This document shows positions 4,347 through 49,865 of a stretch of DNA of 64,000 bases, piece by piece. Source of the stretch: Porphyridium purpureum (lineage: Eukaryota). The position numbers and the translations under genes were made by a program. The notes beneath the pieces are model-generated. The model was not told the DNA's origin. It did no database searches and was given only the letters and a program-made list of their open reading frames with translations. Each line of letters opens with the position of its first letter. Position 1 is the first letter of the stretch. The stretch covers positions 124,001 to 188,000 of the forward strand of contig VRMN01000015.1 of NCBI GenBank assembly GCA_008690995.1, given 5' to 3'.

Positions 4347-4458
4347 CACACTCCCACATCCCGCATCCACACACACACACCCACCCACTTTTCTAACGCT
4401 CCCCAACCTCCCCGCCCCAAACCATTCGCCCACTTCCAACGTGCGGTTCACTTTTATT

Positions 4459-4506
4459 CGGCTTGTCGGCTTGTCGGCTTGTCGGCTTGTCGGCTTGTCG
4501 GTTTAC
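4459..4506. repeat. Octamer tandem repeat (CGGCTTGT)x5 plus CGGTTTAC upstream of CLC
   Basis: Read directly from the sequence. Confidence 0.9.
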
Positions 4507-6245
4507 CGTTCTTATAAACGGCGCGCCAGTTCACAAACCCTCATAATAACCGAGCCGGTTTTGGTATGCACCAACGCGCCCCAAAAAAACCCCAAACGGA
4601 GACCGGACTGTACTTGGAGGTACACGTTCATTTTGACACGCAAGCCATGTTGCAGACGTTGTCGCAGTCAAGTATGATGATGGATCAGGACGCGATAGAA
4701 GGTTTTGGTTTTGGCTCTGGCTCTGGCTCTGGCGCGCAGAGGCAGAGGCAGATTCAGAACCAGAATCGGTCGCGGCTTCGTAGTGCGTACGCGCCTTGAA
4801 GATAGGCACAGGTAAACACGCGGTTGGGCGCACGCGCGTATAAAGTGGCCGGTGCAGAACGTTGCGAAGCTGGCGAAGCATCTTTGATGGCTTGATTGAA
4901 CTCGAACATAGTTTTGAGATGGTCATGCTCTCTTGTATACCTTCCGCATTGGCGTCCTTCACAAGTCCTCGAGAGCAAGCTGCAACCGACAGGCAGGGCT
5001 TCGCATCCGCCAGCCACAGCTGCGCTCCGATTCCTACAGTAAGCGGGAGATCATTGAAAATTTAGTATTATCTCCGAGCTGTTTGACAACGAATCGCCGA
5101 CATTCTGTGTTGCTCGGCCCCTTCCCATTCGCCTTTCTGGCGGCACGCAGCAGCTCTGTTGCCGACCGCGAAACAACAGAGCCGGCACGAGCTCGTGAAG
5201 CTCCAGACCTCCCCCGAACGAGATGAGATTCTGAACTTGCCCCGCGAAAGCGATACACGCGCGCAGGGATAGCGGTGGGTCTCGAAAAGGACCATCTACA
5301 CGTCCTCGGAGCATTCTGAAGGGTTCACACTGGATGATGTTCACCCCGAGCCCTTCTGCGTCGGCGAAGGGCGCCTTTGCAACGCTGCCTCCGCGGCCCA
5401 ATGGCTCCAGCGCATCTGCGGTTCCGCGGCGCATGTTGCTGGCATCATGCACTTGCGCATCTGCGGCCACATGCACTCTCGCGTTCGAAATTCCGGGGAA
5501 TGACCGTTGCACGCTCTAGTCCATGCCCGCAAGACGCGCGCACAACCGCATTTGATGACTTCTCAGAGCGCTACAACGCAAACCTCCAGCTGCTGAAGTC
5601 CCGAGGCGTTTCTCTGGCACTCCCCGGCATGCAGTTTCAGTGATTGCGCGTCCGCGGGGAGATGGCCTCAGACCTTATTTTCAGTCGCGCCACTGACTTG
5701 ACACGCCGCTGCCACATTTCCACACGCCGACATTACGAGGAAAGCAACCGTGCATCAATACCCCGCGGGCCCAGAGACACGTACAGACCAGGGCCGCCGC
5801 AGACTGTGCGTTCATCTCATTTCTCACTGCGCGCGCAGTCCGCGCTCTCCCGACCTGCTTCACGTTCACGCCCAAGCGCCACACGTCTCCAACCCCCGCG
5901 ACCTCGCGGTGTGTACAGCTCCCACAGTACATTGACCCGACGCGGCAATGCAGCATCGCATCCGCATCCTGTCGCTCGACCGTACCGCGGTACAGTGCGC
6001 GGCGACGACGGAGGGCGGCGCGCGCGGGGGTGGGAAGAAGGGCCACGCGCAGTCTATAATGAAACGATGCGGTTTAATCGGAAACTCGCCGCAGCAGTAC
6101 TTGAACCAATACAAGCGCCTCGTTTTTACATGGTTTCGAAGGTTTGTGTGTGGGGTTTGAAGGGGGAAGGGGGAGAGAGAGAGAGAGAGGGAGGGAGAGA
6201 AGGGGACAAGTGTGTGTTTGGGTGTGGGTGTGTGTTGTGGGCAAG

Positions 6246-11633: not shown

Positions 11634-12311
11634 CTACACGGAAAAGAGGTCAAAGTGGCCACCCATGCTGAAACCAGAATAGAGCAGCCGGATCACAGGC
11701 TTGCCATACTCAAACGCGTCGTAGCAGCGGAATTTGGACGCCGAGGTGTCGAACTGATACACCTCAATGGTGCATTGCAAGGCTCGAGCAATCGCCAGAA
11801 GCTCCATGTTTCCCCACAGAGAGCCAAGCCAGAAGCCGTTCTTTCCTCGTCTTCCAACCGATTCGCAAACCTCGTCGATAGAGTGCATGGCCACGACGAC
11901 CGCAAACCCAGCGTTTCTCTGGGCCTCGAGCTCGTAAAAGTGGCGGAACTGGGTGAGCTCCTCGCGCAGCTTGGCACGCACGGTCCTTGAGCTCATGCCC
12001 TTTCCGCTCTTGCCGGTGTTAGCAATGTTCATACCCATGGCAATCGCCTCGAAACCGCAGTTTCCATCTGCCGGAATCGGGTGGAACAAGACAGTGGTCG
12101 TCTCGCCAAACGCGTCCTGGACTTGGGTCTCGACGCGCACAGCCGGCGACTCTACAAAGTCGTTCTCCTCGAGCCTCTTGTTATACTCGACGACCAACGC
12201 GTCCCGCTTCTGGATTTGCTTGTTCATGGACCCGGCTGGCTTGAGCCTTGTCTTCGGCTCGGTCCTCCGCGGCCCGCTGAACGTGCGTACAAGAGCTGCT
12301 CCGATCGCCAT
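11634..12311 (-). CDS. OTU-domain cysteine protease (deubiquitinase-like)
   Basis: IPADGNCGFEAIA (catalytic Asp/Cys), WGNMELLAIARAL and GGHFDL (catalytic His). ATG at 12311. Confidence 0.85.
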   Translation of the reverse strand: MAIGAALVRTFSGPRRTEPKTRLKPAGSMNKQIQKRDALVVEYNKRLEENDFVESPAVRVETQVQDAFGETTTVLFHPIPADGNCGFEAIAMGMNIANTGKSGKGMSSRTVRAKLREELTQFRHFYELEAQRNAGFAVVVAMHSIDEVCESVGRRGKNGFWLGSLWGNMELLAIARALQCTIEVYQFDTSASKFRCYDAFEYGKPVIRLLYSGFSMGGHFDLFSV

Positions 12312-13144
12312 CTTGGTGTGTGGCGTCTCCTTACCTACGAGACTTGAATGATATCGGCACTCTAGCTCACTGCCTGCCCGCTCAACCTCACACCGCAACT
12401 TTATGTATCTAAAGCGTGCAGTGCGCTTCTTATACCGTCCAGAGAAGAGACGACAGACGCTCACAGCTGCCGCGTACCGAACCGTTTTCCCCCCTTGTTT
12501 CCGCACACCTCACAAACACACCCCCCTTCCTGCAGACGTGGCCATTACAAGGAAAGGGACACAGGACGTCACAACCGCGCTATATCGGCGCACGCGGCCA
12601 CGCCTTGCGCGGGCGCGCCAACAAATGCAGCGCGCGTTGCTACACAGCCGTTAAGCGCGTGTGCGCGCTCGTGCGATTCGGGCGATTTCCGCACCCGCGA
12701 GTTGGACGCGGAGCGTGGCGAACTCCGTTACGCGCGCTTCCCATCGCGCGAGCTGGTTGGAGGCGAGCCGGCGCGATTTCCAGCGCCGTTCGGTTTATCC
12801 GTCCGAGTCGCACACACACACACACACACACTCTCTCTCGCTCCTATCAAATCGCTATGCTTTTAACAAGGAAAAAGCAACACAGTTGTTCCGCCGACTT
12901 GCAAGTGTACTTATTTGTTTGTGCGTTCTTAATGAACAAGACACGCGGAACATGGTTTCCTGCCATAGACTATTATAGTCAAAAACACACACACGCACAC
13001 CACAAATGGTTTGCATTAAAATGCACGTTCGATCCAGAAGAACAGAAATGCTTCGTTCATCATGTTTTAGTTGACGCTTACAGAACACTCGAAAATCTGG
13101 ACTTGACCACTGTACTTATGCACTGTACATAATCACTGTGCATC

Positions 13145-13381
13145 CGTGGTTGAACCGTGTATACACCGCCCCACCGACCTGCTGTACCTTGTTGTCGTCG
13201 CCGTCATTTGCGCGTCTGCGAGGATATATAAGCGGCGAGGTAAGAGCGGCGCAGAGCGCGACCCGATCTGGGAAAGGGCAAGAGAGATGTTAGTGTGTTG
13301 GAGGTAAAGTTGGTCCTGTTTGCTTTGCTTCTCCCTCTCCACCGTAACAATACGGTACACACGTGGTAGTAGTATCATTGG
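13145..13381 (+). repeat. 5' LTR
   Basis: Matches 19319-19555 with no differences seen by eye. Contains the TATA-like GATATATAAG at about 13223. Confidence 0.95.
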
Positions 13382-13394
13382 GTTATGAGCCCAG
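13381..13394 (+). promoter_or_regulatory. Primer-binding site complementary to the anticodon arm of initiator tRNA-Met (half-tRNA priming)
   Basis: GGTTATGAGCCCAG directly after the LTR; reverse complement CTGGGCTCATAACC. Same type as the copia/Ty5 PBS. Confidence 0.8.
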
Positions 13395-13770
13395 CGCTCT
13401 AAGCGCTTTGGGGTAGGTGTAAGTTAAGACTGACCGTTGTTTTCCTCCCCTTTTCCCTTTCGTTCCCGATCTCGATTGTTCCCGCCGCAACCCCAGCGGC
13501 CGCGACCAAGAGCCGACGAAGAATACCGGCCAGCCGACGGACATCCCGGTCAAGATCTTCAGTAAGAGAACTCCCGAGCAGAGTATCCGTAGAAGTGCAC
13601 GCCAAAAGGCAGTGCCAAGAGAAGACCGCACGGGAGGAGTGTGAGCGAGAACGACACCGTCGGGTGCCTGGGATGGACCCGCGCGAAGGTATGGAGCAAG
13701 TGCCTCCACAACAATCCGCACAAGGTGCGAGCAACCTCGCCCGTGTGTGTCGAGTGAAAGGAAAGAGGCC

Positions 13771-13995
13771 ATGAAGGCCGAGTTGTTGCAGGAAATGGGT
13801 CCGCAGATCCATCGTCTGATGAAAGAACAAGAACAGCGCCTGGGCGCAGAATTTCAAGCTCAATTGGATGCGCGAGAGGCGCGATTCCAGAGCGAAATCG
13901 GTGGTTTGCGTGCCGCCTTGGCGACATGTGTCACAAACGGAGCTTTCTTCCTTACTTCTTCTTCTCTCCTCCTCTACCTCCTCTCTTCTTCCTAG
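13771..13995 (+). CDS. Short coiled-coil upstream ORF in the retroelement leader
   Basis: MKAELLQEMGPQIHRLMKEQEQRLGAEFQAQLDAREARFQSEIGGLRAAL. Overlaps the start of the long ORF, which is in the -1 frame. Confidence 0.4.
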   Translation: MKAELLQEMGPQIHRLMKEQEQRLGAEFQAQLDAREARFQSEIGGLRAALATCVTNGAFFLTSSSLLLYLLSSS

Positions 13996-14258
13996 CCTTT
14001 TTTCTTCGTTCGGCTGCCGCTCGCTCTGTTTTATACCCGCCTTCCGGCGCCGCAACGGCTTGCCCGGCGGGTTCAGCCCTCGGAATAACCCAATCCCGCG
14101 GCCCTCAACATAACTCAGCTGTACCACACGGTACACCCACAGCTGTACTTTCAGTACACTTAGGGACTGTACCTCTGCGTACTCGCTGTACTGAGACCTG
14201 CATCAGGTCGCTCGCGACACATGGAGAAAGTTCATCGTCGGCTACGCTTAGCGGCGTG

Positions 14259-17200
14259 ATGAAAAATGTCTCAGTATCGGCGCCGGCAATGCCAACATTG
14301 AAACCGGCACCGATGGTGCACTACGGTGGCGAGCGCACATTGTCTGCGCTGCTGAGATGGAAATTTGCCGCGCGTGACCGGGTCTACTTGCCTGCAAAAA
14401 CGGAATGGATGAACTCCGGGCGTCAGTGGACCTCTGCGCAAGAAGAGCAGGTAGTGTCGACGCTTGCAACCTATTTCATCAACGATGCGCAGTCATGGTT
14501 TGAGTCACTCGTCGTGCGGCCGGCATCTTTCCATGATCTCACGGGACTGGTAGAGGCGCGTTATGCGCCACACCAGACGGAGGCCAAAACGCGTATGGAA
14601 ATGCTTAAGTTAAGTCAGGGTCGCTCCTCTGTGCAGGACTACGAATCGCGCTTTCGTGCACTGGCGCTTAAATGCCCCAGTCTGTCCGATCAGGAAAGGC
14701 TGTTCTACTTTGAGAATGGTCTCGAAGAGCAGGTGAAAATGCAGGTCGCCCTGAAGGAGCCACAGATCTACGAGGAAGCGCTAAAGTATGCGGTATTGGC
14801 CGACGCGGTGATTCACCCGCAAACGAGTCGACCGCGAGGAATCTGGGGCGCAGCGCAGCAAGCGCAAGAAACGGCTCCGATGGAGTTGGGCACGGTTCGC
14901 GGTCACGGTAGTGGGGGCGGCAACAGCAGTCGGCGCGGTGGTAGTAATTTTACTGGACGCAGTCCGGTAAACTCTGCTACTCGTCGTCGCAGCCGGCGCT
15001 TTTCGAACACCTTCCGTGGCAGCTACGCTGCGAGCGGATCTAATGATGGCCCACGCGGTGAGTCACACACCGATTCGCGCGCACGTGCGCATACTAGCGT
15101 GCCGCGGGTTCCCGAACGCGAGCGATATAGCCGCGATAACGACGGGAGTCGAGGCGTGCTTTTCGGCAATGGACAAGGCGCGAGTCGACGGCGTGAAACC
15201 GAGCGAACGCGTGCGACCACGCGTGCAGAACTCCGCCATTATTGCTTTGAATGCGGTCATGATCAGCCGGTTAACCACCAATGTCAGCGTGACTCGCGCG
15301 AGGCGGATTTGGGCACCATCAACGTCATTCCGCAGGGCGCGGTACCTGAAACGTCAAAGTCGGAAGAACGGTCGGATTCCTGGTATGACGGCGTGGCGGA
15401 AGATTTCCGCGAAGAATCGGAAATGTATGATCAGATGACCGGAGACACAGGGCAAGACCGCTATGGCAGCGATCCCTGGGTGTGGAGTAGTGAGGATGAA
15501 GTCGAAGACTCTTCGCCGGCACGCCCCAGGGAAGAAGGGCCCGCGCTTGAGCCGTTGCTGACCAGGTTTCGTGCCAAGCCGAGTGCAACGGATCCTGCTG
15601 CAGAGCTGCTTACCGCATCGATTGGAGTCAGCCACGCTGGTCTCATCAAGATCGACGCGCGAGTAAACGGCATCGTGATCCCGGCTATCATGGATACAGG
15701 AGCGTCGCACACATTTTTGAGCGTGGCCGCATGTCGCGAAGCCAGTGTGGGAAAGCATGACTTGGTGCCCCGCACCGTGAGCCGTGTACGGCTAGCCGAT
15801 GGAAGTATGGCACCGACGCGTGGATGTGCAGTGGTGACGCTGGGAATGCATGGCCTGATCGAACGTAAGCATAATGTGGTTGTCTACGATGGACACCACC
15901 CGCTGGTGATAGGCCTCGATTGGATGAGGTCACGCAGCATGTGCCTTACGATTGATGGAGTACAGCTGAACACCGCCGTGGCGGCGCCAGATAAAACAAG
16001 CACTGGCATGAGCGCGGTGGCGCATGAAATACTCCACATGCCCACTCGTGAAGGCTGTCGGATATGCGCGCTGGCAAAAATCCGGAGGGCATCGGCCGTG
16101 CGACGCGTTGAGCGCGTGGGAAGTGTCGATGACGTGCCTCGCGAAAGGTGCGATGAAGAGGATCTACGTGCCCGTTTCAACGACCGTGTTTCAGTGGATC
16201 TCGTCGACCCGACCATTCCGGGTGTCAACGGAAACCGATATTTGCTGTCACACAGAGACATCGCCACGAACTGGTGGTCCTTCCAAGGCGTCTGCGATAA
16301 GTCGGCGGAGAGTGTCCTGGAAGCGTTCATGGAAATTCAGCGCGGAAGGGGCTGGCCGAGAGTTTTGCGGTGTGACGAGGGCAGCGAATTTAAAGGATCA
16401 TTTGAGGAGGCGTTGCACTCTCACCTTGTGCAAAAGGACGTAGGAGTTGCATATCGCGCAAATACGCATGCGTCCCACGAGCGGATGCATGCTGATGTGA
16501 ACGCCGGGGTTCGTGCCCTGCTTGTGCAAAGCGGTCTGCCGTACCGATGGTACGCATCTGCTGTCAAGTATTGGGTTTTGGCCAGAAACTTAACGTGGAA
16601 AGGCCGCACGTCGCGGCAGACGGCGTTCGAGAAGCGTTTTAAGCGTGAGTGGAAAAGAGAACTTCCCCCCTTCGGCGCTGGCGTCGTTGTGTATGACGAG
16701 TCGCACATGAAATTCGGTACTTCGGGCATCGTGGCAATCGTCGTAGGCTTCACCGTCCCGGATCCACTAGATGAGCGCGAGCATATCAATGTACTTGTCG
16801 TACCCAAGGATGATCTTCGTTTTGCTGCCGTGCGCAGAGTGAAAGAGTGGCGCATGCTGGATGGCATTTGGCCAGTGCGGGGCATGGGTTTGCGCGAAAG
16901 AGAAGCTGAGCTACACAACAACGACCCAAGTTTCCTGGAGCGTGTCAGTGTGCGTGATGAAGATCTGGAGTGGTGTTCTCGGTGCCGAAAAGTGTGTCGC
17001 GGTAACATAGACTGCGATAGATGCGTGTTCGGCACCGCGGCGCGTGCCGCACATTCAGCGAGTGCAGGGTGCGCAAGAGACCGGTGCGTGTGCCCGCGGA
17101 ATGCGGACGGCGAGCTACGTGAAGCAGTTGCGGTGCGTCAAGGTACATACAAACGCATGCAGTTACCGTGGTCCGAGGAAGAAGACGAGGCTCTTCTGCG

Positions 17201-19040
17201 CGCGATGCCGTCCGACGAGGAACATTCCGGACAAAAATGGAAGAAGATATTGAGAGCTCCGGCGTTCTTTATGCGCGGTAGAAAACCCGCGGCTGCAGCA
17301 GCGCGGCTGCGAGAATTGACTGCGGCGCAGGTCAATGTGACCGAGGTCGTGGACACGGGAAGCGTGTTGGAGACACAGAGCGGCATCACTGCGTTGCGCG
17401 CAGAGCTGCGCGCCCTCACGAGCGCGGGCGCGCTGCCTTTCGAGAAGACAGTGGAGCGGGCTGTGGCTGCCAGGACACCCGGCGCGCGTTTCGTCAAGCT
17501 GAAGCTCTTAATGAGCGTCAAAAATCGCGAGATGCCCCCGGAGTTCCACAAAGTAAAAGCCCGCATCGTGGCTCAAGGCTGTCATATCGAGGACTCGCGT
17601 GGCCATAGGGCTGTCGACGAAGGATTTGCCTTCGACAAGCCACCGGGTCTTGCGGCCATACGCGCGGCAATGTCGAGCGCGCTGTTGCGCTCCGGCTCCG
17701 ACGCAGACGGTGCATTCTTCGACATTGACTGCGCGTACACGAGCGCGAAGCTTGGCGGACCTCCCACGTTCGGTGTAGTTCGCGGGCTTCGGCGCTTTCT
17801 GCGTGGGTCGGTCAGTGGCGAAGAATGGCACAAGGTCGAGGGTCTCGAAGATCCCGTGGTGCCACTGCCGCGAGCCTTGTATGGGCTGCCGCGCGCTGGC
17901 AGCGACTTCGCGCACCACGCGCGCAAGTTGCTTTTGTCATGTGAATGGCGCGAGAGTCAAGCGGATTTGAATCAGTACATGAAACGCGGTGCGAGCGGGC
18001 GCACGGTAGTTTTGAGCATGTACGTCGACGACGGCGCATGTTTCGGTCACAAGAATGATGTCGCCGATGCTGTGAAGGAGTTTAGAAAGATTTTCAAAAT
18101 TACTCGCCCGGTCGAGTCGCTGTCAGAGAGCAGCAAGGAAAAGCCAATTCGTTTTCTGGGATCACACCTGTACAGCGATGGCGGTTACTGGGTTTTGGAT
18201 TCGTCGAGCTACGCTCAGCATATAGTTGAGTGCGCGCGCGATCGCATCACGCGCGAACGCTCCAATCCATTGTCAGAGCGCGTCGAGGCAAGTGGAGAGG
18301 CTCGTGGACAGATGTGTCCAGCGTGGGTTCAAGGATCACTCGGGCAGCTGCTTTGGCTCACCCGCACGGCGCGGCCAGATCTGGCCATGAGCGTCGCGCA
18401 TGTGGCAAGATTCGTGCACCGGTGGGACGATGCAGCAACGAAGGCGCTGTCAGAAATCCTTGGCTACCTGCGCAAGCACGTGGACGTGCGCCTGCAGTAC
18501 GAGATTCCGATAGTTTGCGGGCGCCCTGAAGTCGTCGTGTTCAGCGATGCAGACTTCGCCGTCGCTGGGTCTGTGAGCGGCGCGGCCGCGTTCTTCGGTG
18601 TTGGCAAGGTTCGGCACTTGGTCGATTGGGTAAGCCGCAAGCAGCGGCGCGTGTCGACGAGCACCGCAGAGGCAGAGCTGGTGGCCGCACACGGCGCGGC
18701 ACAAGGTTGCGTGTTCCCTTTGGGTACGCACCTCGAGGAAATGAGCTGCTCGTGGCCGCGGGTGCGGCTGTTCGTGGATAACGAGGCCGCGTTGCGCGCC
18801 ATAGCTCGCGGGCACAGCGATAAGCTGTCACACGTCTCCAAAATGCAGCACATCTCGATCCGGTGGTTGCACGAGACTGTCGCCGATGGAATTATTGAGA
18901 TGTGTCATGTCCCGACGCGAGCGAATCTGGCAGACGGGCTTACGAAGCCTTTGCCCACGGACAAGTTTCGCAGTCACGCTTTCGCGTGGGGTCTCTATTC
19001 GTTGACACTATCCACAGGTGCTGCACACTGTGGAAAATAG
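14259..19040 (+). CDS. Retrotransposon polyprotein: Gag - Zn knuckle - aspartic protease - integrase - Cys cluster/Myb - RT - RNase H
   Basis: Gag AQSWF...LSQGRSSVQDYESRF...FENGL and PMELG; CFECGH; protease IMDTGASHTF...IGLDW; integrase HEILH...CRIC, VSVD, RCDEGSEF, HER; RT LYGLPRAG and MYVDD; RNaseH FSDADFA, STAEAEL, ANLADGLTK. The frame is open from 13926; likely ATG 14259. Confidence 0.93.
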   Translation: MKNVSVSAPAMPTLKPAPMVHYGGERTLSALLRWKFAARDRVYLPAKTEWMNSGRQWTSAQEEQVVSTLATYFINDAQSWFESLVVRPASFHDLTGLVEARYAPHQTEAKTRMEMLKLSQGRSSVQDYESRFRALALKCPSLSDQERLFYFENGLEEQVKMQVALKEPQIYEEALKYAVLADAVIHPQTSRPRGIWGAAQQAQETAPMELGTVRGHGSGGGNSSRRGGSNFTGRSPVNSATRRRSRRFSNTFRGSYAASGSNDGPRGESHTDSRARAHTSVPRVPERERYSRDNDGSRGVLFGNGQGASRRRETERTRATTRAELRHYCFECGHDQPVNHQCQRDSREADLGTINVIPQGAVPETSKSEERSDSWYDGVAEDFREESEMYDQMTGDTGQDRYGSDPWVWSSEDEVEDSSPARPREEGPALEPLLTRFRAKPSATDPAAELLTASIGVSHAGLIKIDARVNGIVIPAIMDTGASHTFLSVAACREASVGKHDLVPRTVSRVRLADGSMAPTRGCAVVTLGMHGLIERKHNVVVYDGHHPLVIGLDWMRSRSMCLTIDGVQLNTAVAAPDKTSTGMSAVAHEILHMPTREGCRICALAKIRRASAVRRVERVGSVDDVPRERCDEEDLRARFNDRVSVDLVDPTIPGVNGNRYLLSHRDIATNWWSFQGVCDKSAESVLEAFMEIQRGRGWPRVLRCDEGSEFKGSFEEALHSHLVQKDVGVAYRANTHASHERMHADVNAGVRALLVQSGLPYRWYASAVKYWVLARNLTWKGRTSRQTAFEKRFKREWKRELPPFGAGVVVYDESHMKFGTSGIVAIVVGFTVPDPLDEREHINVLVVPKDDLRFAAVRRVKEWRMLDGIWPVRGMGLREREAELHNNDPSFLERVSVRDEDLEWCSRCRKVCRGNIDCDRCVFGTAARAAHSASAGCARDRCVCPRNADGELREAVAVRQGTYKRMQLPWSEEEDEALLRAMPSDEEHSGQKWKKILRAPAFFMRGRKPAAAAARLRELTAAQVNVTEVVDTGSVLETQSGITALRAELRALTSAGALPFEKTVERAVAARTPGARFVKLKLLMSVKNREMPPEFHKVKARIVAQGCHIEDSRGHRAVDEGFAFDKPPGLAAIRAAMSSALLRSGSDADGAFFDIDCAYTSAKLGGPPTFGVVRGLRRFLRGSVSGEEWHKVEGLEDPVVPLPRALYGLPRAGSDFAHHARKLLLSCEWRESQADLNQYMKRGASGRTVVLSMYVDDGACFGHKNDVADAVKEFRKIFKITRPVESLSESSKEKPIRFLGSHLYSDGGYWVLDSSSYAQHIVECARDRITRERSNPLSERVEASGEARGQMCPAWVQGSLGQLLWLTRTARPDLAMSVAHVARFVHRWDDAATKALSEILGYLRKHVDVRLQYEIPIVCGRPEVVVFSDADFAVAGSVSGAAAFFGVGKVRHLVDWVSRKQRRVSTSTAEAELVAAHGAAQGCVFPLGTHLEEMSCSWPRVRLFVDNEAALRAIARGHSDKLSHVSKMQHISIRWLHETVADGIIEMCHVPTRANLADGLTKPLPTDKFRSHAFAWGLYSLTLSTGAAHCGK

Positions 19041-19318
19041 TCACGGCTATTACCCCAGGTGCGAGTAAAATCAAAAAGAAAAAGGAAAAGAACAAGGAAG
19101 AAGAGGAAAAGAAATCTTTGGCGTGTGAACGTGGTTATGTTTTTCCGCGCACGTTCTGCTGGTGGTCACGCTGGCGCGCCGTGGTCGTGGCGTCCGGGTT
19201 AAGGATTGGTGAGACGCGCAAGGCGCGAAGGAAACATCAAATGAAAAATTGATCTGAATGATTGGCGGGTAGTTGCCCGGCGAGGCTGATTGCACGGCGG
19301 GTGTGGTGTTGGGGGGCG

Positions 19319-19555
19319 CGTGGTTGAACCGTGTATACACCGCCCCACCGACCTGCTGTACCTTGTTGTCGTCGCCGTCATTTGCGCGTCTGCGAGGATA
19401 TATAAGCGGCGAGGTAAGAGCGGCGCAGAGCGCGACCCGATCTGGGAAAGGGCAAGAGAGATGTTAGTGTGTTGGAGGTAAAGTTGGTCCTGTTTGCTTT
19501 GCTTCTCCCTCTCCACCGTAACAATACGGTACACACGTGGTAGTAGTATCATTGG
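19319..19555 (+). repeat. 3' LTR, preceded by a G-rich polypurine tract at 19311-19316
   Basis: Direct repeat of 13145-13381. Confidence 0.95.
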
Positions 19556-20021
19556 CGTCCGACGATTTTGTCGCTTGGGTTCGGAAATCTCGTTTTGTTC
19601 TGGAGCCCGCCCCGCTCGTCAAGAACAGAACGGCACGCGGTTGTCGCGCGAGCGGGAGACATAGCACTGGCGTACGTTCCCTGTCCGTAGCAGCTGTGGT
19701 CGCCGTGCGTGGCCTCGAGCGGCGTGATGTTGCGACGCGAGGTTTCTTACCGGCTTGCTCTTGGCGCTGTGGCCGACAGTCGTTGCGGCTAGAAAAGTCG
19801 CATCGCTTGGTCTGCCGCAGTTCTTAGCGGTTCCAAGGTGAACCGTTTGGCAGTTGACCGATTAGGCGGTTCGCGGTGCAGCTCAACTGTACCGCGTTGG
19901 CTTTCAGTGTACTTTGTGTACAGTTGATGTGGGTGGTGGTGCGCATGGACGCAGCAGCAGCAGCAGTAGCGCTGGGCAAGTGCGAGGTTGGCAGCAGCGG
20001 GCACACAGTTTGGCTGCGGCA

Positions 20022-21035
20022 ATGCAGGCGCCGAGCGCGGTATGGCTCGTCGGTGCGTTCGTTGGTGCCGCCGCCGCGCTTTGGATGAGCGTGTGGCTCG
20101 CGCGAAGAATAGCAGACTGGGTGCAGCCCGAGCATCCGCGCAATGCGTATGGCATGTTGAGCGCTCATGATTCCAGCAGCGCCGGCCGTTTAGAGACGCC
20201 CGGCGCAAGGTATCGGCGCTCAATTCGGCAAATGATGCGCGAGCAGGACGTGTACCGGCGTCCGTGGCCTGAACGTATGCTCGACGTGCCGTACCTGCTC
20301 TCACAGCGTCATGCGTGGTTCCTGGCGCACGTCGCGTCGCTGTTTGCGGTGCACGGCAACACGCGCGTGATCCTGCGCAGAATGCTCGACTTTGCAACGG
20401 CATACTATTCAGACTATGCACAGAAGCATGCCCGCTTTTTCCCACACGAGTGCGGCGATGTAATTGATGATGAGGAGCAGGACAGCATGGGCGCGGAGGC
20501 TGGAGCTTCGGCGGACGAAGCGACGCCGTCGAGTGCGGCGGCGGCGGTATCTACTGGTATGGAAGCAGAGGCTGCCTGGCCCATGCTCGAGAAAGAGTGG
20601 TACAGCGTGCGGCATGCCGGTGCCGACCCGCGGGGAATGCAGGCACTGCTTCGTTCGAAGCTTCTGGCCGCGGCCTTACGCACGCACGCCGAGCGCGACG
20701 GAGCTTCGACATCTCAACAGCGGCAAATCGCCAGCGACGCTCAAGCCATGGAGCCGCGCAGTAAGAGCTATAAGGTTTACCGCTCAAATCCATTTGACCT
20801 CGAGGCTTTGCCAGAGCGGGCACAGCCCGTCGCAACGGTACCCGAGCTCGCGCAACTCGGTATATTTGACGCGCGGGTGCGGCTGCGCCATCACATTTTC
20901 CTGCTCGCGGTGCAGCGTGAGTGTGGTCTTGCATCCCCCAGCGATGCGCTTTCGTTCATTATTGACGCGCTGAAAAGTGATCCTCGATTCCGCGAACAGT
21001 ATGCGCTGGATCCATTCAATGCGCGAATCACTTGA
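20022..21035 (+). CDS. Hypothetical protein with an N-terminal hydrophobic anchor
   Basis: ORF of 337 aa from MQAPSAVWLVGAFVGAAAALWMSVWLARR with protein-like composition. No family recognised. Confidence 0.65.
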   Translation: MQAPSAVWLVGAFVGAAAALWMSVWLARRIADWVQPEHPRNAYGMLSAHDSSSAGRLETPGARYRRSIRQMMREQDVYRRPWPERMLDVPYLLSQRHAWFLAHVASLFAVHGNTRVILRRMLDFATAYYSDYAQKHARFFPHECGDVIDDEEQDSMGAEAGASADEATPSSAAAAVSTGMEAEAAWPMLEKEWYSVRHAGADPRGMQALLRSKLLAAALRTHAERDGASTSQQRQIASDAQAMEPRSKSYKVYRSNPFDLEALPERAQPVATVPELAQLGIFDARVRLRHHIFLLAVQRECGLASPSDALSFIIDALKSDPRFREQYALDPFNARIT

Positions 21036-21762: not shown

Positions 21763-23640
21763 TCACTCTGACCCGAACGACTGCTCGGCAAGATCAATGG
21801 CGCGCGCCATTGCCATCGATTTGTTGATAGTCTCTTGATACTCTGACTCGGGGTTTGAATCAGCCACGATGCCCGCACCAGCCTGTACAAAATATTTCCA
21901 CGCCTTGCCGTCTGCAGCACGCGTGATCACCATGGTGCGCAGCGCGAGAGCAATGTTCATTGAGTCCTGGAAGGACACAAACCCAATGCCGCCTCCGTAC
22001 GGCCCGCGCAGTGTCGGCTCGATCGAGTCAATAATTTGAATCGCGCGGATTTTCGGCGCTCCGGACACAGTGCCCGCCGGCAGCGTTGCGCGCAGCGCGT
22101 CCCACGAGGTCAGGCCGTCTCTTAGCTGACCCAGTACCGTGGATGAAATGTGCATGACGTGCGAGTAGCGCTCTATTTCCATGAGCGAGACAACATCCAC
22201 CGTGCCGTACTCGGACACGCGGCCAAGATCGTTGCGACCGAGGTCAACCAGCATGACATGCTCGGCAATCTCTTTGGTGTCTGCCAGCAGCTCGCTCTCT
22301 AGCGCTTCATCCTCGGCAGGCGTCTTCCCGCGCCAACGTGTGCCGGCCAGCGGTCGGTTTGTCACGGTACGATTTGACACTTTGCACAGGATCTCCGGTG
22401 ACGACGCCACAAGCACGCAGTCTTCACACTGCATGTAGATCATGTATGGCGACGGGTTGATCACACGTAGGGCACGATACACGCTGAACGGATCGACACT
22501 TGAATCGTACTCAAAACGCTGCGAGAGCACAATTTGGAACGCATCGCCGACACCAATGTGGTACAAACACTTATCAATGCCGTCCAGAAATTGCTGCTTC
22601 GTCATGTTACTCTTAAACTTACTCGCGCATCGCGCTGGACCGGACGTGTTCAGTTCTACGAAAGCCGAGCGCAGCGGAGACAAAAGGTGACGCCGCATAA
22701 CCACATCGACCGTCTGATTGAGCCTCGCCATGCCATGCTCATACGCGCTGCGCAGCCTGTGCTCGTGCCGCGCCAGATCGACCCACTCAACGATGAACAG
22801 CAGTTTCGAAAAATGATCCACAATAATCGACGAGGTATACAGGCCCATGTGCATTTCTGGCAGTTGGCGGTCATCCGGCGGCGCGGACGCAAACCCAAGC
22901 TTGCCAGCCTCGCCGTAGCGCACCGTATCGTAGCCGCCATAGCCGACCCAGCCACCGGCGAATGACTCGGGCAGCTCGTCTGCATCCGCACTCTTCAGCT
23001 CTCGCATAAAATCGGCAATAAATGTCCAGGGATCCTCATGCTCGAATCGGGTGACTGCAGATGACTCACCCGCCGCAGCGTCCCGTCGATCGGTGAGCGT
23101 GAGCTGATTCCTGCGAGCAACCACTTCCACCACGGGGTCCGCGCCAACGAATGAGTAGCGTCCCACGCTGCCGGATCCGGCCGTGACGGCCGACTCGAGC
23201 AGAAACGCGTGCTTATGCGGTTCGTCCTCTCCCACGAGGCACCGGAAAAGCTCTACGGGCGTGAGCTGGTCCGCAAAGACGCGTCGCCACACGGGCACCA
23301 ACCGAACGCCGCTCCTCGCCGCGGCGCGCGCTTCAAAAGCCTCAAACGAGACGCCCTGCTCCTTACCACTTGCCCCATGTGTCTCGGCACTGTGCTCTCC
23401 CATGGGAGAATCGCCCGAGTTGGCCGTCTGCACGCGCTCCTTGTCCGTGCTTGTCATGCACAACGCATCGCTCTTGCTGGTGCGATGCCTCGCGCGTCTT
23501 TGCATGCCGTACCCGCCCGTTGCTGACTCCACGCCGCGCCCCAGCGGCCGTGCCTTTCCATGTCCGATTCGCACACACACCATGCTGCCGGACCCACTTG
23601 TTGCGCTCAACGCGCCGAGCACTCCCACGAACGCCTCCAT
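21763..23640 (-). CDS. trpE: Anthranilate synthase component I (alpha subunit), plastid-targeted
   Basis: FLLESA, GRYSF, GDAFQIVLSQR, NPSPYM, SSPE, RPLAGT, AEHVMLVDLGRND, PAGTVSGAPK, QAGAGIVADS. MEAFVG transit-peptide-like start. Confidence 0.95.
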   Translation of the reverse strand: MEAFVGVLGALSATSGSGSMVCVRIGHGKARPLGRGVESATGGYGMQRRARHRTSKSDALCMTSTDKERVQTANSGDSPMGEHSAETHGASGKEQGVSFEAFEARAAARSGVRLVPVWRRVFADQLTPVELFRCLVGEDEPHKHAFLLESAVTAGSGSVGRYSFVGADPVVEVVARRNQLTLTDRRDAAAGESSAVTRFEHEDPWTFIADFMRELKSADADELPESFAGGWVGYGGYDTVRYGEAGKLGFASAPPDDRQLPEMHMGLYTSSIIVDHFSKLLFIVEWVDLARHEHRLRSAYEHGMARLNQTVDVVMRRHLLSPLRSAFVELNTSGPARCASKFKSNMTKQQFLDGIDKCLYHIGVGDAFQIVLSQRFEYDSSVDPFSVYRALRVINPSPYMIYMQCEDCVLVASSPEILCKVSNRTVTNRPLAGTRWRGKTPAEDEALESELLADTKEIAEHVMLVDLGRNDLGRVSEYGTVDVVSLMEIERYSHVMHISSTVLGQLRDGLTSWDALRATLPAGTVSGAPKIRAIQIIDSIEPTLRGPYGGGIGFVSFQDSMNIALALRTMVITRAADGKAWKYFVQAGAGIVADSNPESEYQETINKSMAMARAIDLAEQSFGSE

Positions 23641-24509
23641 CTCGGCCGCAAACCCCACCACGCGCCGACCCCCGCCGGACGCCCCGCACCACGCAACGCC
23701 GCACGCACGCTCGCACGAAGGCAGCCACACAGCCTGCCCACACCAGCGCCAGACGCAACGAAGGATATCGCGCCGTCCCCTTCTCACTCCCCGCTCAACA
23801 CCACCGTCCCGCTCCCCACCCACCCGCCCCCCGCACGCCGACGCACACAGTTAAAAAAGTACACCCGCGCGCCGTTAAATTAACATTCGTAATGCGCCAT
23901 CTCATTGCAATCTGTCATTCCACGTTCCTTCCACGCACAAAACTCCATCCACCAGCACCAGGCGCCGCAGCCACCGGTACAGCGAAAGTACAGCGTGGGG
24001 ACGGGGGATAGTGTACAGTGCGGTGCTGTACTTTCTGGGATTACAAGTTACAGCGGAGTGTGTTGTGCGCCCGCGCGACTGGCGGTCAGGGAATGGTGGT
24101 GCAAGTGGCGGGTGTGGGAGAGAAAAGGAAGAGAGAGAAAGGGAGAGAGAGTGAGAGTAAGGAAGGACGAGTGGCTGTGGATGTGGCGGATGAGACGATA
24201 GGAGTCTGGCTTGCGCGTGAGTGGATTGCCAAGTGGGAGCACGGTGTGCGCGGCATAGTTCGGTTTGCGTGTTTGTCTCTGCGTGTGTGTGTGGTTTTTG
24301 AGAGGGAACAAGACGACGGACTGAGCGGTCTCGAGGATTGTGGTGCCGCTAGGTGGGGTTGAAGCAGTCGGTAGTTCGTGTGCGACGAGTGAGTGGAGGG
24401 TGTTGGTGTTGGTGTTGCCGCGCATGGATAGGTGAGGTGCGAAACGCAGCGAGTGTGATTCGTGGTGAGGACGGGGGGAACGGTTGTGTAGGTGGAGAGT
24501 GGTGCGAAG

Positions 24510-49013: not shown

Positions 49014-49537
49014 TTCGTCCTTCACCATGCCGGTCCCAACCGCCGCGTCTCTCTGAGCGATCTCTGTCGTGAATGCCAACGGCGCGCCCACGTCCCCGAC
49101 CGCGTCTCCGCTCCGCTCTCCCCTCGTTGTTCGACCCCTTGTGACCTTCACCACTCCGTCCACCTTCCCCGACCGCCGCCCCTTCCGAAATCTGCTCGTC
49201 ATTTTCTCACCCGACTCACTTTCCGAATTCTTCCTAGTAAACAAAGCCAATTTACTATGAAATAACTGTACCTCCGTCGTGCCTTGCCGAATTCTCCGGG
49301 TTGGTTGTTGGCCGCGTGCGAGTGCCAGGAGGCTTCCCGCGTCTAGTGGCAGGCTGCAACCACCTGCGTGACATCCGCTTGCCGTCTCGACCCTTTCGCA
49401 GACACGCACAGCACTCGCACGCCTATCTCGGGAATACGACGCGCCACAGGACGCACGCAACAGGCCGTGACTCCGCAGGCCGACGCACGTTCCACACCCA
49501 TCATCTCTTGGCGTCCGCCTCCCGTCCAGTCCGCCTG

Positions 49538-49865
49538 TACTGGTTTACTGGTTTACTGGTTTACTGGATTACTGGATTACTGGATTACTGGTCTACTGGA
49601 TTACTGGATTACTGGTTTACTGGTTTACTGGTTTACTGGTTTACTGGATTACTGGTTTACTGGTTTACTGGTTTACTGGTTTACTGGTTTACTGGTTTAC
49701 TGGTCTACTGGTTTACTGGTCTACTGGTTTACTGGTTTACTGGTTTACTGGTTTACTGGTCTACTGGTCTACTGGATTACTGGTTTACTGGTCTACTGGT
49801 TTACTGGTTTACTGGTTTACTGGTCTACTGGTCTACTGGTTTACTGGTTTACTGGTTTACTGGTT
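49538..49865. repeat. Octamer satellite (TACTGGTT/TACTGGAT/TACTGGTC), about 41 copies, in a divergent intergenic region
   Basis: Read directly; 328 bp. Confidence 0.97.

Follow-up and report, generated by a model that had tools for sequence, protein, structure and literature searches.

The division that sets Ty1/Copia apart from Ty3/Gypsy is the main dividing line among retrotransposons with long terminal repeats (LTRs). The classification rests on reverse transcriptase (RT), RNase H and integrase, while Gag and protease are left out. As shortcuts between Copia and Gypsy, the portion of one review that was available to us (PMC2774666) lists only the chromodomain of CoDi-A and the gene order of Gmr1, and the accessible part of the REXdb survey (PMC6317226) reports that chimeric-looking elements were dropped as likely mispredictions. 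Here we describe an LTR element of the red alga Porphyridium purpureum, located in a stretch of 64,000 nucleotides (GenBank assembly GCA_008690995.1, contig VRMN01000015.1, positions 124,001 to 188,000 of the forward strand; hereafter the window, to which all positions refer). The element very probably belongs to an old Porphyridium Copia lineage, recently mobile, that carries a Gypsy Gag-protease module. A preliminary description, made from the sequence alone, had suggested an inter-superfamily recombinant or a distinct, poorly described lineage, and both halves of this suggestion are supported by the domain tests and trees reported below. Our search of the full-text literature, which left most subscription journals, Repbase and GyDB outside, returned no paper on Copia enzymes with a Gypsy Gag-protease nor on these Porphyridium elements.

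An open reading frame scan showed 1760 codons without a stop at 13758-19040. The protein read from 14259 has 1593 amino acids and carries every motif that the preliminary description had listed, with DTGA starting at 15693, KARIVAQG at 17556, LYGL at 17877, YVDD at 18021, SDADF at 18543, AEAEL at 18666 and ADGLTK at 18930. Pfam assigns Retrotrans_gag (E 4e-12), Ty3_capsid (5e-6), Asp_protease_2 (6e-7) and gag-asp_proteas (9e-6) to this protein, followed by RVT_2 (2e-5) and a weak rve match (3e-3 on a sub-region); RVT_1 is absent, and the Copia families PF14223, PF22936 and PF13976 have no match at E<=1. The single frame that was said to join a Gypsy-like Gag and protease to Copia-type integrase, RT and RNase H is thus borne out by the frame, the motifs and Pfam. 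The sister copy P0017 is unbroken (1690 amino acids; 1570 of 1593 residues identical), and its N-terminus equals the sequence at 13673. The coding parts of the element are as follows.

13673..13928, plus strand: detached 5' part of gag, likely a coiled-coil N-terminus (matches the N-terminus of P0017)
14271..14903, plus strand: Ty3/Gypsy-type capsid domain with PMELG at its end (Pfam, profile test, tree, PDB sequence search; model with predicted local distance difference test, pLDDT, of 90)
15243..15284, plus strand: degenerate nucleocapsid zinc knuckle (lines up with CCHC knuckles in relatives, of which P0005, P0034 and P0035 have Pfam zf-CCHC)
15624..15983, plus strand: Gypsy/Ddi1-type aspartic protease (DTG at 15693; VIGLDW as the ILG motif)
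16014..16898, plus strand: Copia-clade integrase (HHCC from 16023; DDE core)
16974..17093, plus strand: Cys/His-rich finger in C4-H-C3 order after the integrase core, common to this Copia clade
17154..17327, plus strand: weakly Myb-like module (Pfam Myb below the cut-off)
17322..18293, plus strand: Copia reverse transcriptase (YVDD at 18021)
18456..18983, plus strand: Copia RNase H (stop codon of the frame at 19038-19040)

On its own the family PF03732 is not diagnostic, as it matches the ordinary Copia protein P0010 too; therefore each domain was tested further. All 13 hybrid proteases scored higher on a Gypsy profile (20-64 bits) than on a Copia profile (1-18 bits), and in leave-one-out controls 9/9 Gypsy and 26/26 Copia proteases were sorted correctly. 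The motif LLS is regarded as a marker of the Copia protease with “a very few exceptions” in the text of PMC2774666 at our disposal. It occurs in none of the 13 hybrid proteases, all of which carry ILG; with our pattern LLS was recovered in 17 of the 26 Copia proteases, one of which also matched ILG. Ten out of ten hybrid Gags reached 19-119 bits on a Gypsy profile built without the candidate donor and less than 3 bits on two Copia profiles, the one from the nearest kin having regained 9 of its own 12 members in leave-one-out. Compared with PDB sequences, the Gag-protease profile ranked Ty3 Gag and dArc first and met Copia Gag at the knuckle only, and all eight non-hybrid matches among long proteins carry RVT_1. 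A single-sequence PDB search with Gag alone gave nothing under E 0.7. In the ESM Atlas the look-alikes of the protease were all retroviral or Gypsy-type but below 0.9, which we take as a lead only. Gag and protease grouped with none of the Copia sets tested, and on these sequence comparisons they are Gypsy-type.

The three enzymes that follow belong to the other superfamily, in agreement with the domain order and motifs noted beforehand. All trees were calculated under LG+G4. In the RT-RNase H tree (48 rows, five of them Gypsy; two rows had been dropped for lack of an anchor) Copia is held together at 100/100, and the hybrids fall into two clades, the main one (100/100) and another around P0187. 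The sister group P0044/P0047/P0048/P0104 joins the hybrids at 100/98; three of its four members show a Copia-type protease, and the Gag of P0048 is unrelated to the hybrid Gag. Since the pol part is nested and the sister group keeps Copia proteases, the gain of the Gypsy module is placed on the hybrid side. In the integrase tree (57 rows, five of them Gypsy) Copia is again united (100/99) and the hybrids stand in three places. Across the protease-integrase junction GC content makes no step (0.58 versus 0.57).

Between integrase and RT lie two further modules. The Cys/His finger is common to the hybrids and their kin with Copia proteases, with 31 distinct motif variants among the proteins compared. 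The Myb-like module is nearly confined to the main hybrid clade of Porphyridium and scores Pfam E 0.18 here and 0.008-0.02 in P0006 and P0003. A model of both (pLDDT 77, predicted template modelling score 0.44) found no fold match at E<=10 or Z>=5 and no usable match in the ESM Atlas, so that the Myb label is a weak one; without a fold match, the segment 16974-17327 is noted as a candidate for integration-targeting domains.

The hybrid build is not restricted to this locus. In eleven clusters of P. purpureum a single protein combines this integrase with a Gag or protease of Gypsy type (P0017, P0003, P0005, P0034, P0035, P0037, P0039, P0041, P0042, P0052 and P0187). Six of them are full-length, with an RT-RNase H 34-53% identical to that of P0017. 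Of the 16 members of the P0003 cluster, eight that are full-length or nearly so were compared and are 97-99% identical to P0003. Two metagenome clusters, P0055 and P0045, likewise combine a Gypsy-type protease with this integrase. A word-based search with the Gag-protease of P0005 returned only P0005 itself and P0034. None of 26 viral contigs and none of the phage records aligned with the hybrid, and among metagenome contigs 309 pattern matches yielded six loci, all ordinary Copia-like pol fragments of 22-25% identity.

Among 1.84 billion representatives the best non-hybrid hit of the Gag is P0076 (KAA8495185.1), a complete Gypsy polyprotein of P. purpureum itself. The hybrid Gags are 26-38% identical to that of this true Gypsy element and have lineage-specific N-terminal motifs in common with it. 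In the Gag tree (40 of 56 eligible rows) P0076 falls together with all hybrids (94/92), as sister to the P0187 group (95/82). The main hybrid clade shows the same three subgroups in the trees of Gag, protease, integrase and RT-RNase H, and the mixed element has therefore diversified as a unit. Its Gypsy module probably goes back to one or more captures inside this host lineage.

How often this happened can be weighed within the capture reading itself. The variant in which two or more branches (the main clade, the P0187 clade and the P0055 clade) took up Gypsy modules is in our view not quite an even call. It is favored by the position of P0076, which is sister to the Gags of P0187 and P0161 and not outside all hybrids, and by the scatter of the hybrids, which stand at three separate points of the integrase tree and at two of the tree from RT-RNase H. 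Frame organization points the same way: the models P0186/P0050/P0187 of the second hybrid clade and P0192/P0076 of the Gypsy relative suggest separate gag and pol frames, P0186 and P0192 ending after the knuckle, unlike P0017 and the main clade with their one frame. Against it, approximately unbiased (AU) tests did not reject one origin (Gag p 0.485, integrase p 0.30), and the rows between the two RT-RNase H groups either lack N-termini or carry other integrases.

Further mixed proteins were seen in the comparison and are reported here in their own right. P0078, P0083 and P0091 have a classical Copia integrase (P0078 also a classical protease) joined to an RT of the kind found in this clade, a second module swap, within Copia. 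In P0011 a Copia RT is preceded by the zinc domain (Integrase_H2C2) and core of a Gypsy-type integrase, possibly another mix across the superfamilies. In P0012, a Copia polyprotein, the protease and the integrase are separated by Tudor and chromo domains.

A different explanation would do without any capture: a deeply divergent Copia lineage could have kept an ancestral Gypsy-like Gag-protease, or could have converged on one. Copia and Gypsy capsids have similar folds, PF03732 reaches into Copia as mentioned for P0010, and the exceptions to LLS conceded in the accessible text of PMC2774666 would leave room for such a lineage. The pol part is however nested and not basal, the rows that form its sister group carry proteases of Copia type and a Gag unrelated to that of the hybrids, and the hybrid Gag resembles that of a true Gypsy element of the same species, N-terminal motifs included. 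We consider this explanation largely refuted and very improbable.

Even less credit goes to an artefact, which we take as refuted: either a misassembly, or a single dead junction at which a Gypsy 5' half and a Copia 3' half became nested. The small insertion and deletion differences between the window and the reads, and the nested LTR present in this copy, would be compatible with it. The preliminary description had named 15960-16020 as the place where such a junction might be found. A gapless contig of run X1 covers 14876-18810 and one of X3 covers 15150-16438, both crossing the protease-integrase junction; this contiguity rests on contigs of public runs, not on long reads. The same build recurs in diverged families, six of them full-length, the eight additional members of the P0003 family are nearly identical to P0003, and one LTR pair together with an empty site bounds the whole unit. 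A Gmr1-like Gypsy element with the integrase moved upstream of RT, which the order Gag-protease-integrase-RT-RNase H with a Gypsy Gag-protease would fit (PMC2774666, as far as its text was available), is refuted by RT, RNase H and integrase that are all Copia in the trees (100/100 and 100/99) and can practically be dismissed.

The capture of a Gypsy module by a Copia lineage is also consistent with the non-coding parts of the element, which are given next together with the insert that interrupts gag.

13140..13144, plus strand: left target-site duplication GCATC (the empty allele in X2, X5 and X9 joins the left flank to 19558)
13145..13380, plus strand: 5' LTR of 236 bp, CG start and TG end (ends from contig break points)
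13381..13395, plus strand: primer binding site of the half-tRNA type, which pairs with the tRNA-Met(CAT) anticodon arm (complementarity starts at 13379)
13929..14219, minus strand: nested solo LTR of 291 bp from another high-copy, transcribed family (TG...CA, CATG on each side; skipped by contigs)
19311..19318, plus strand: G-rich tract adjoining the 3' LTR, from its sequence a likely plus-strand primer site
19319..19554, plus strand: 3' LTR, same as the 5' LTR (236/236 identity)
19555..19559, plus strand: right target-site duplication GCGTC (one mismatch to GCATC)

Among at least 120 exact matches listed for the 17 bases at 13379-13395, 109 fall on the opposite strand of tRNA-Met(CAT) and span its anticodon arm; the tRNAs matched come from viral contigs and not from the host. 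Anticodon-arm priming is known for copia and Ty5 and, according to the parts of PMC10886601 and PMC6317226 that we could consult, is found in plants in Copia lineages only, so that the cis frame of the element is Copia-like as well. Folding gave no sign of a self-priming hairpin at the LTR end and primer site (z -0.73).

The two LTRs (13145-13380 and 19319-19554) agree at all 236 positions. An empty site is present in three runs (X2, X5 and X9), and X1 shows the junction on the right, although at low depth. The points at which contigs depart from the LTR follow ...CATTG (19554) in X2 (two), X5 (three) and X9 (two), some of which may be the same loci. On the left side one other insertion (X2 and X5) has its flank meeting the LTR exactly at CG, which is also where LTR contigs of X5 and X9 start (19319), with a depth of 133 against 19 on the flank in the X5 contig; the canonical 5'-TG...CA-3' ends are not seen. 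With good confidence the LTR ends are 5'-CG...TG-3', TG and CA sitting 2 and 3 nucleotides inside. A TG start with a 7-bp duplication (GCATCCG/GCGTCCG) fits this single site equally well; it was set aside on account of the other insertion's flank and the X5 and X9 contigs that start at CG. For non-canonical LTR ends of plants the first base is always T in the accessible text of two surveys (bioRxiv 10.1101/137141; PMC9804982). Ends of the type CG...TG, if so, would hide such elements from finders based on TG...CA. One contig of X3 joins 19318 to 13145 and thus runs from the 3' internal part through one LTR into the 5' internal part, as would tandem copies, a collapsed repeat or a circle with one LTR.

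The insertion appears to be recent, and the identical LTRs, the empty sites and the near-identical multi-copy families would be indirect signs of mobility. The preliminary description had gone further and regarded the frame as intact and mobile in this form. The identical LTRs agree with this; the intactness does not hold, as the 5' end of gag is split by the solo LTR. Nor does the frame start at 14259: the true gag start lies near 13673, where the N-terminus of P0017 matches. The gag of this copy is disabled by the nested solo LTR, the element is not intact here, and the mobile form would be the longer version as in P0017. Contigs of X1, X2 and X3 omit 293 bases at 13921-14213. Two nucleotides near 13743, which shift the gag frame in the assembly, are missing from all four runs aligned. 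Small insertions or deletions set reads from several runs apart from the window at 13450, 13743 and 13945, suggesting assembly errors or changes specific to this copy. A third copy is apparently split into P0016 and P0018, and the P. purpureum protein P0002 is 100% identical across residues 580-1593, its model skipping sequence with false introns.

The nested 291-bp insert is read as a solo LTR of another family. Its depth in X2 is about 8000 compared to about 200 on the flanks (approximately 40-fold), and minus-strand transcripts reach an RNA depth of about 120 in X21, with poly-T tails at 13931. Poly(A) lies 2 nucleotides from its end, and 265 reads enter from purine-rich upstream sequence. 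The solo LTR is part of an active family.

Several observations weigh against a recently mobile Copia lineage with a captured Gypsy module. Eight of the Gypsy reference proteins, the non-hybrid matches mentioned above, came from a hybrid query, which favors likeness; this bias does not touch the tests by Pfam, PDB and motif. The relatives are gene models, some of them with false introns. The Gag clade of hybrids and P0076 stays, at 94/92, just under the starred level. The protease tree separates P0076 from the hybrids, supports the branch of Gypsy and hybrids at no more than 87/87 and puts one Gypsy row with Copia. With a pLDDT of 90, the capsid model matches the capsids of PEG10, dArc, Copia, Ty1 and Ty3 alike. 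In a fold search PEG10 came first (Z 14.1, root-mean-square deviation 1.7, 84 residues aligned) and the Drosophila Copia capsid second (Z 12.1, 6.0, 159 aligned); in another the Copia capsid was ninth. As modelled, the fold is that of a real capsid but is indicative of no superfamily. The captures may have been one or several, and the target duplication (5 bp, GCATC left and GCGTC right) has a mismatch. In one raw-read run sense RNA reads cover the two ends of the element at depth 1-9 and drop to zero at approximately 15600-17700. A spliced gag RNA was considered for this pattern of covered ends and empty middle; no such joint is listed.

Gag and protease likely moved together, since a protease has to mature its own Gag. 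As the likeliest route we propose that a Gypsy element inserted into a Copia element and that a deletion came afterwards, with template switching in a shared particle in second place; the data do not separate the two. One polyprotein would be made, of which the Gypsy capsid, with the knuckle, could form the particle and package the RNA. The Gypsy protease would release both the Gag products and the Copia enzymes, integrase and RT-RNase H. Priming would be by a tRNA-Met that is cut within its anticodon arm, and the Copia integrase would join the CG...TG ends with a 5-bp duplication.

A hint of co-adaptation arises from the border just before RT. All ten rows of the hybrid clade, read by eye, show a motif of the type V[AT][EQ], with E in the last position except for Q in P0035. 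The form L[GN]x[AT] recurs near the borders of the knuckle and the protease and in P0076. Rows with Copia proteases mostly have K or R at this integrase/RT position, with P0094 as an exception. The integrase/RT junction may thus be co-adapted to the Gypsy protease, as far as an alignment can hint at it. The joint claim that a Copia clade swapped its whole particle module for Gypsy modules more than once within one algal lineage, that a relative of the donor is still present in the genome, that the junction was re-tuned (L[GN]V[AT]E for T[KR]) and that the ends start with C and not T is put forward as a tentative one, which we would rather doubt than expect to hold in all its parts.

The element is flanked by an OTU-family protease gene at 11634-12509 on the minus strand (Pfam) and by a frame of 389 amino acids without annotation at 19866-21035 on the plus strand. 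A frame at 21763-23850 on the minus strand is presumably an anthranilate synthase. Tandem arrays of 8-bp units, TGGTTTAC-like and CGGCTTRY-like, occur at 49458-49860 and beyond, at 1357-1425 and at 4443-4519.

The hybrid would work as a Copia element whose particle is of Gypsy type, and it has full membership of neither superfamily. The lineage indicates that the capsid-protease module is exchangeable across the line between Copia and Gypsy. With a cultured alga, a relative of the likely donor and a Copia sister group at hand, it becomes testable what capsid and protease need to handle foreign RNA, primer and enzymes.

Among known systems Ty1/Copia (Pseudoviridae), and in it the groups primed by half-tRNA-Met (copia, Ty5, Osser and Bryco), has the same domain order, integrase, RT and RNase H, the same anticodon-arm primer site, a 5-bp duplication and a short LTR; the Cys/His finger is shared with the closest sequences, the unnamed metagenome kin P0044, P0047, P0048 and P0104. 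These Copia kin may bear some likeness to elements of dinoflagellates. Ty1/Copia differs from the hybrid in Gag and protease, which are Gypsy-type here (ILG, not LLS), and in the CG...TG ends, and the RT-RNase H is 26% identical to the classical P0010 and 34% to P0048. The Ty3/Gypsy element P0076 has the same capsid with a PM[ED]LG end and a Ddi1-like protease, its Gag being 28% and its protease 31% identical to this family, and the capsids of Ty3, Arc and PEG10 are of the same domain type; P0076 however possesses RVT_1, a Gypsy RNase H and an integrase in last position, all of which the hybrid lacks. Gmr1-like Gypsy elements show the same succession of Gypsy Gag-protease, integrase and RT, yet Gmr1 is a change of gene order within Gypsy, whereas the three enzymes of the hybrid are Copia. 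The plant Copia elements without TG...CA ends (Tos17, AtRE1, TARE1 and the lotus families) resemble it in their short LTRs and non-canonical ends; their first base is T throughout what was accessible of both surveys (bioRxiv 10.1101/137141; PMC9804982), and it is C in the element described here.

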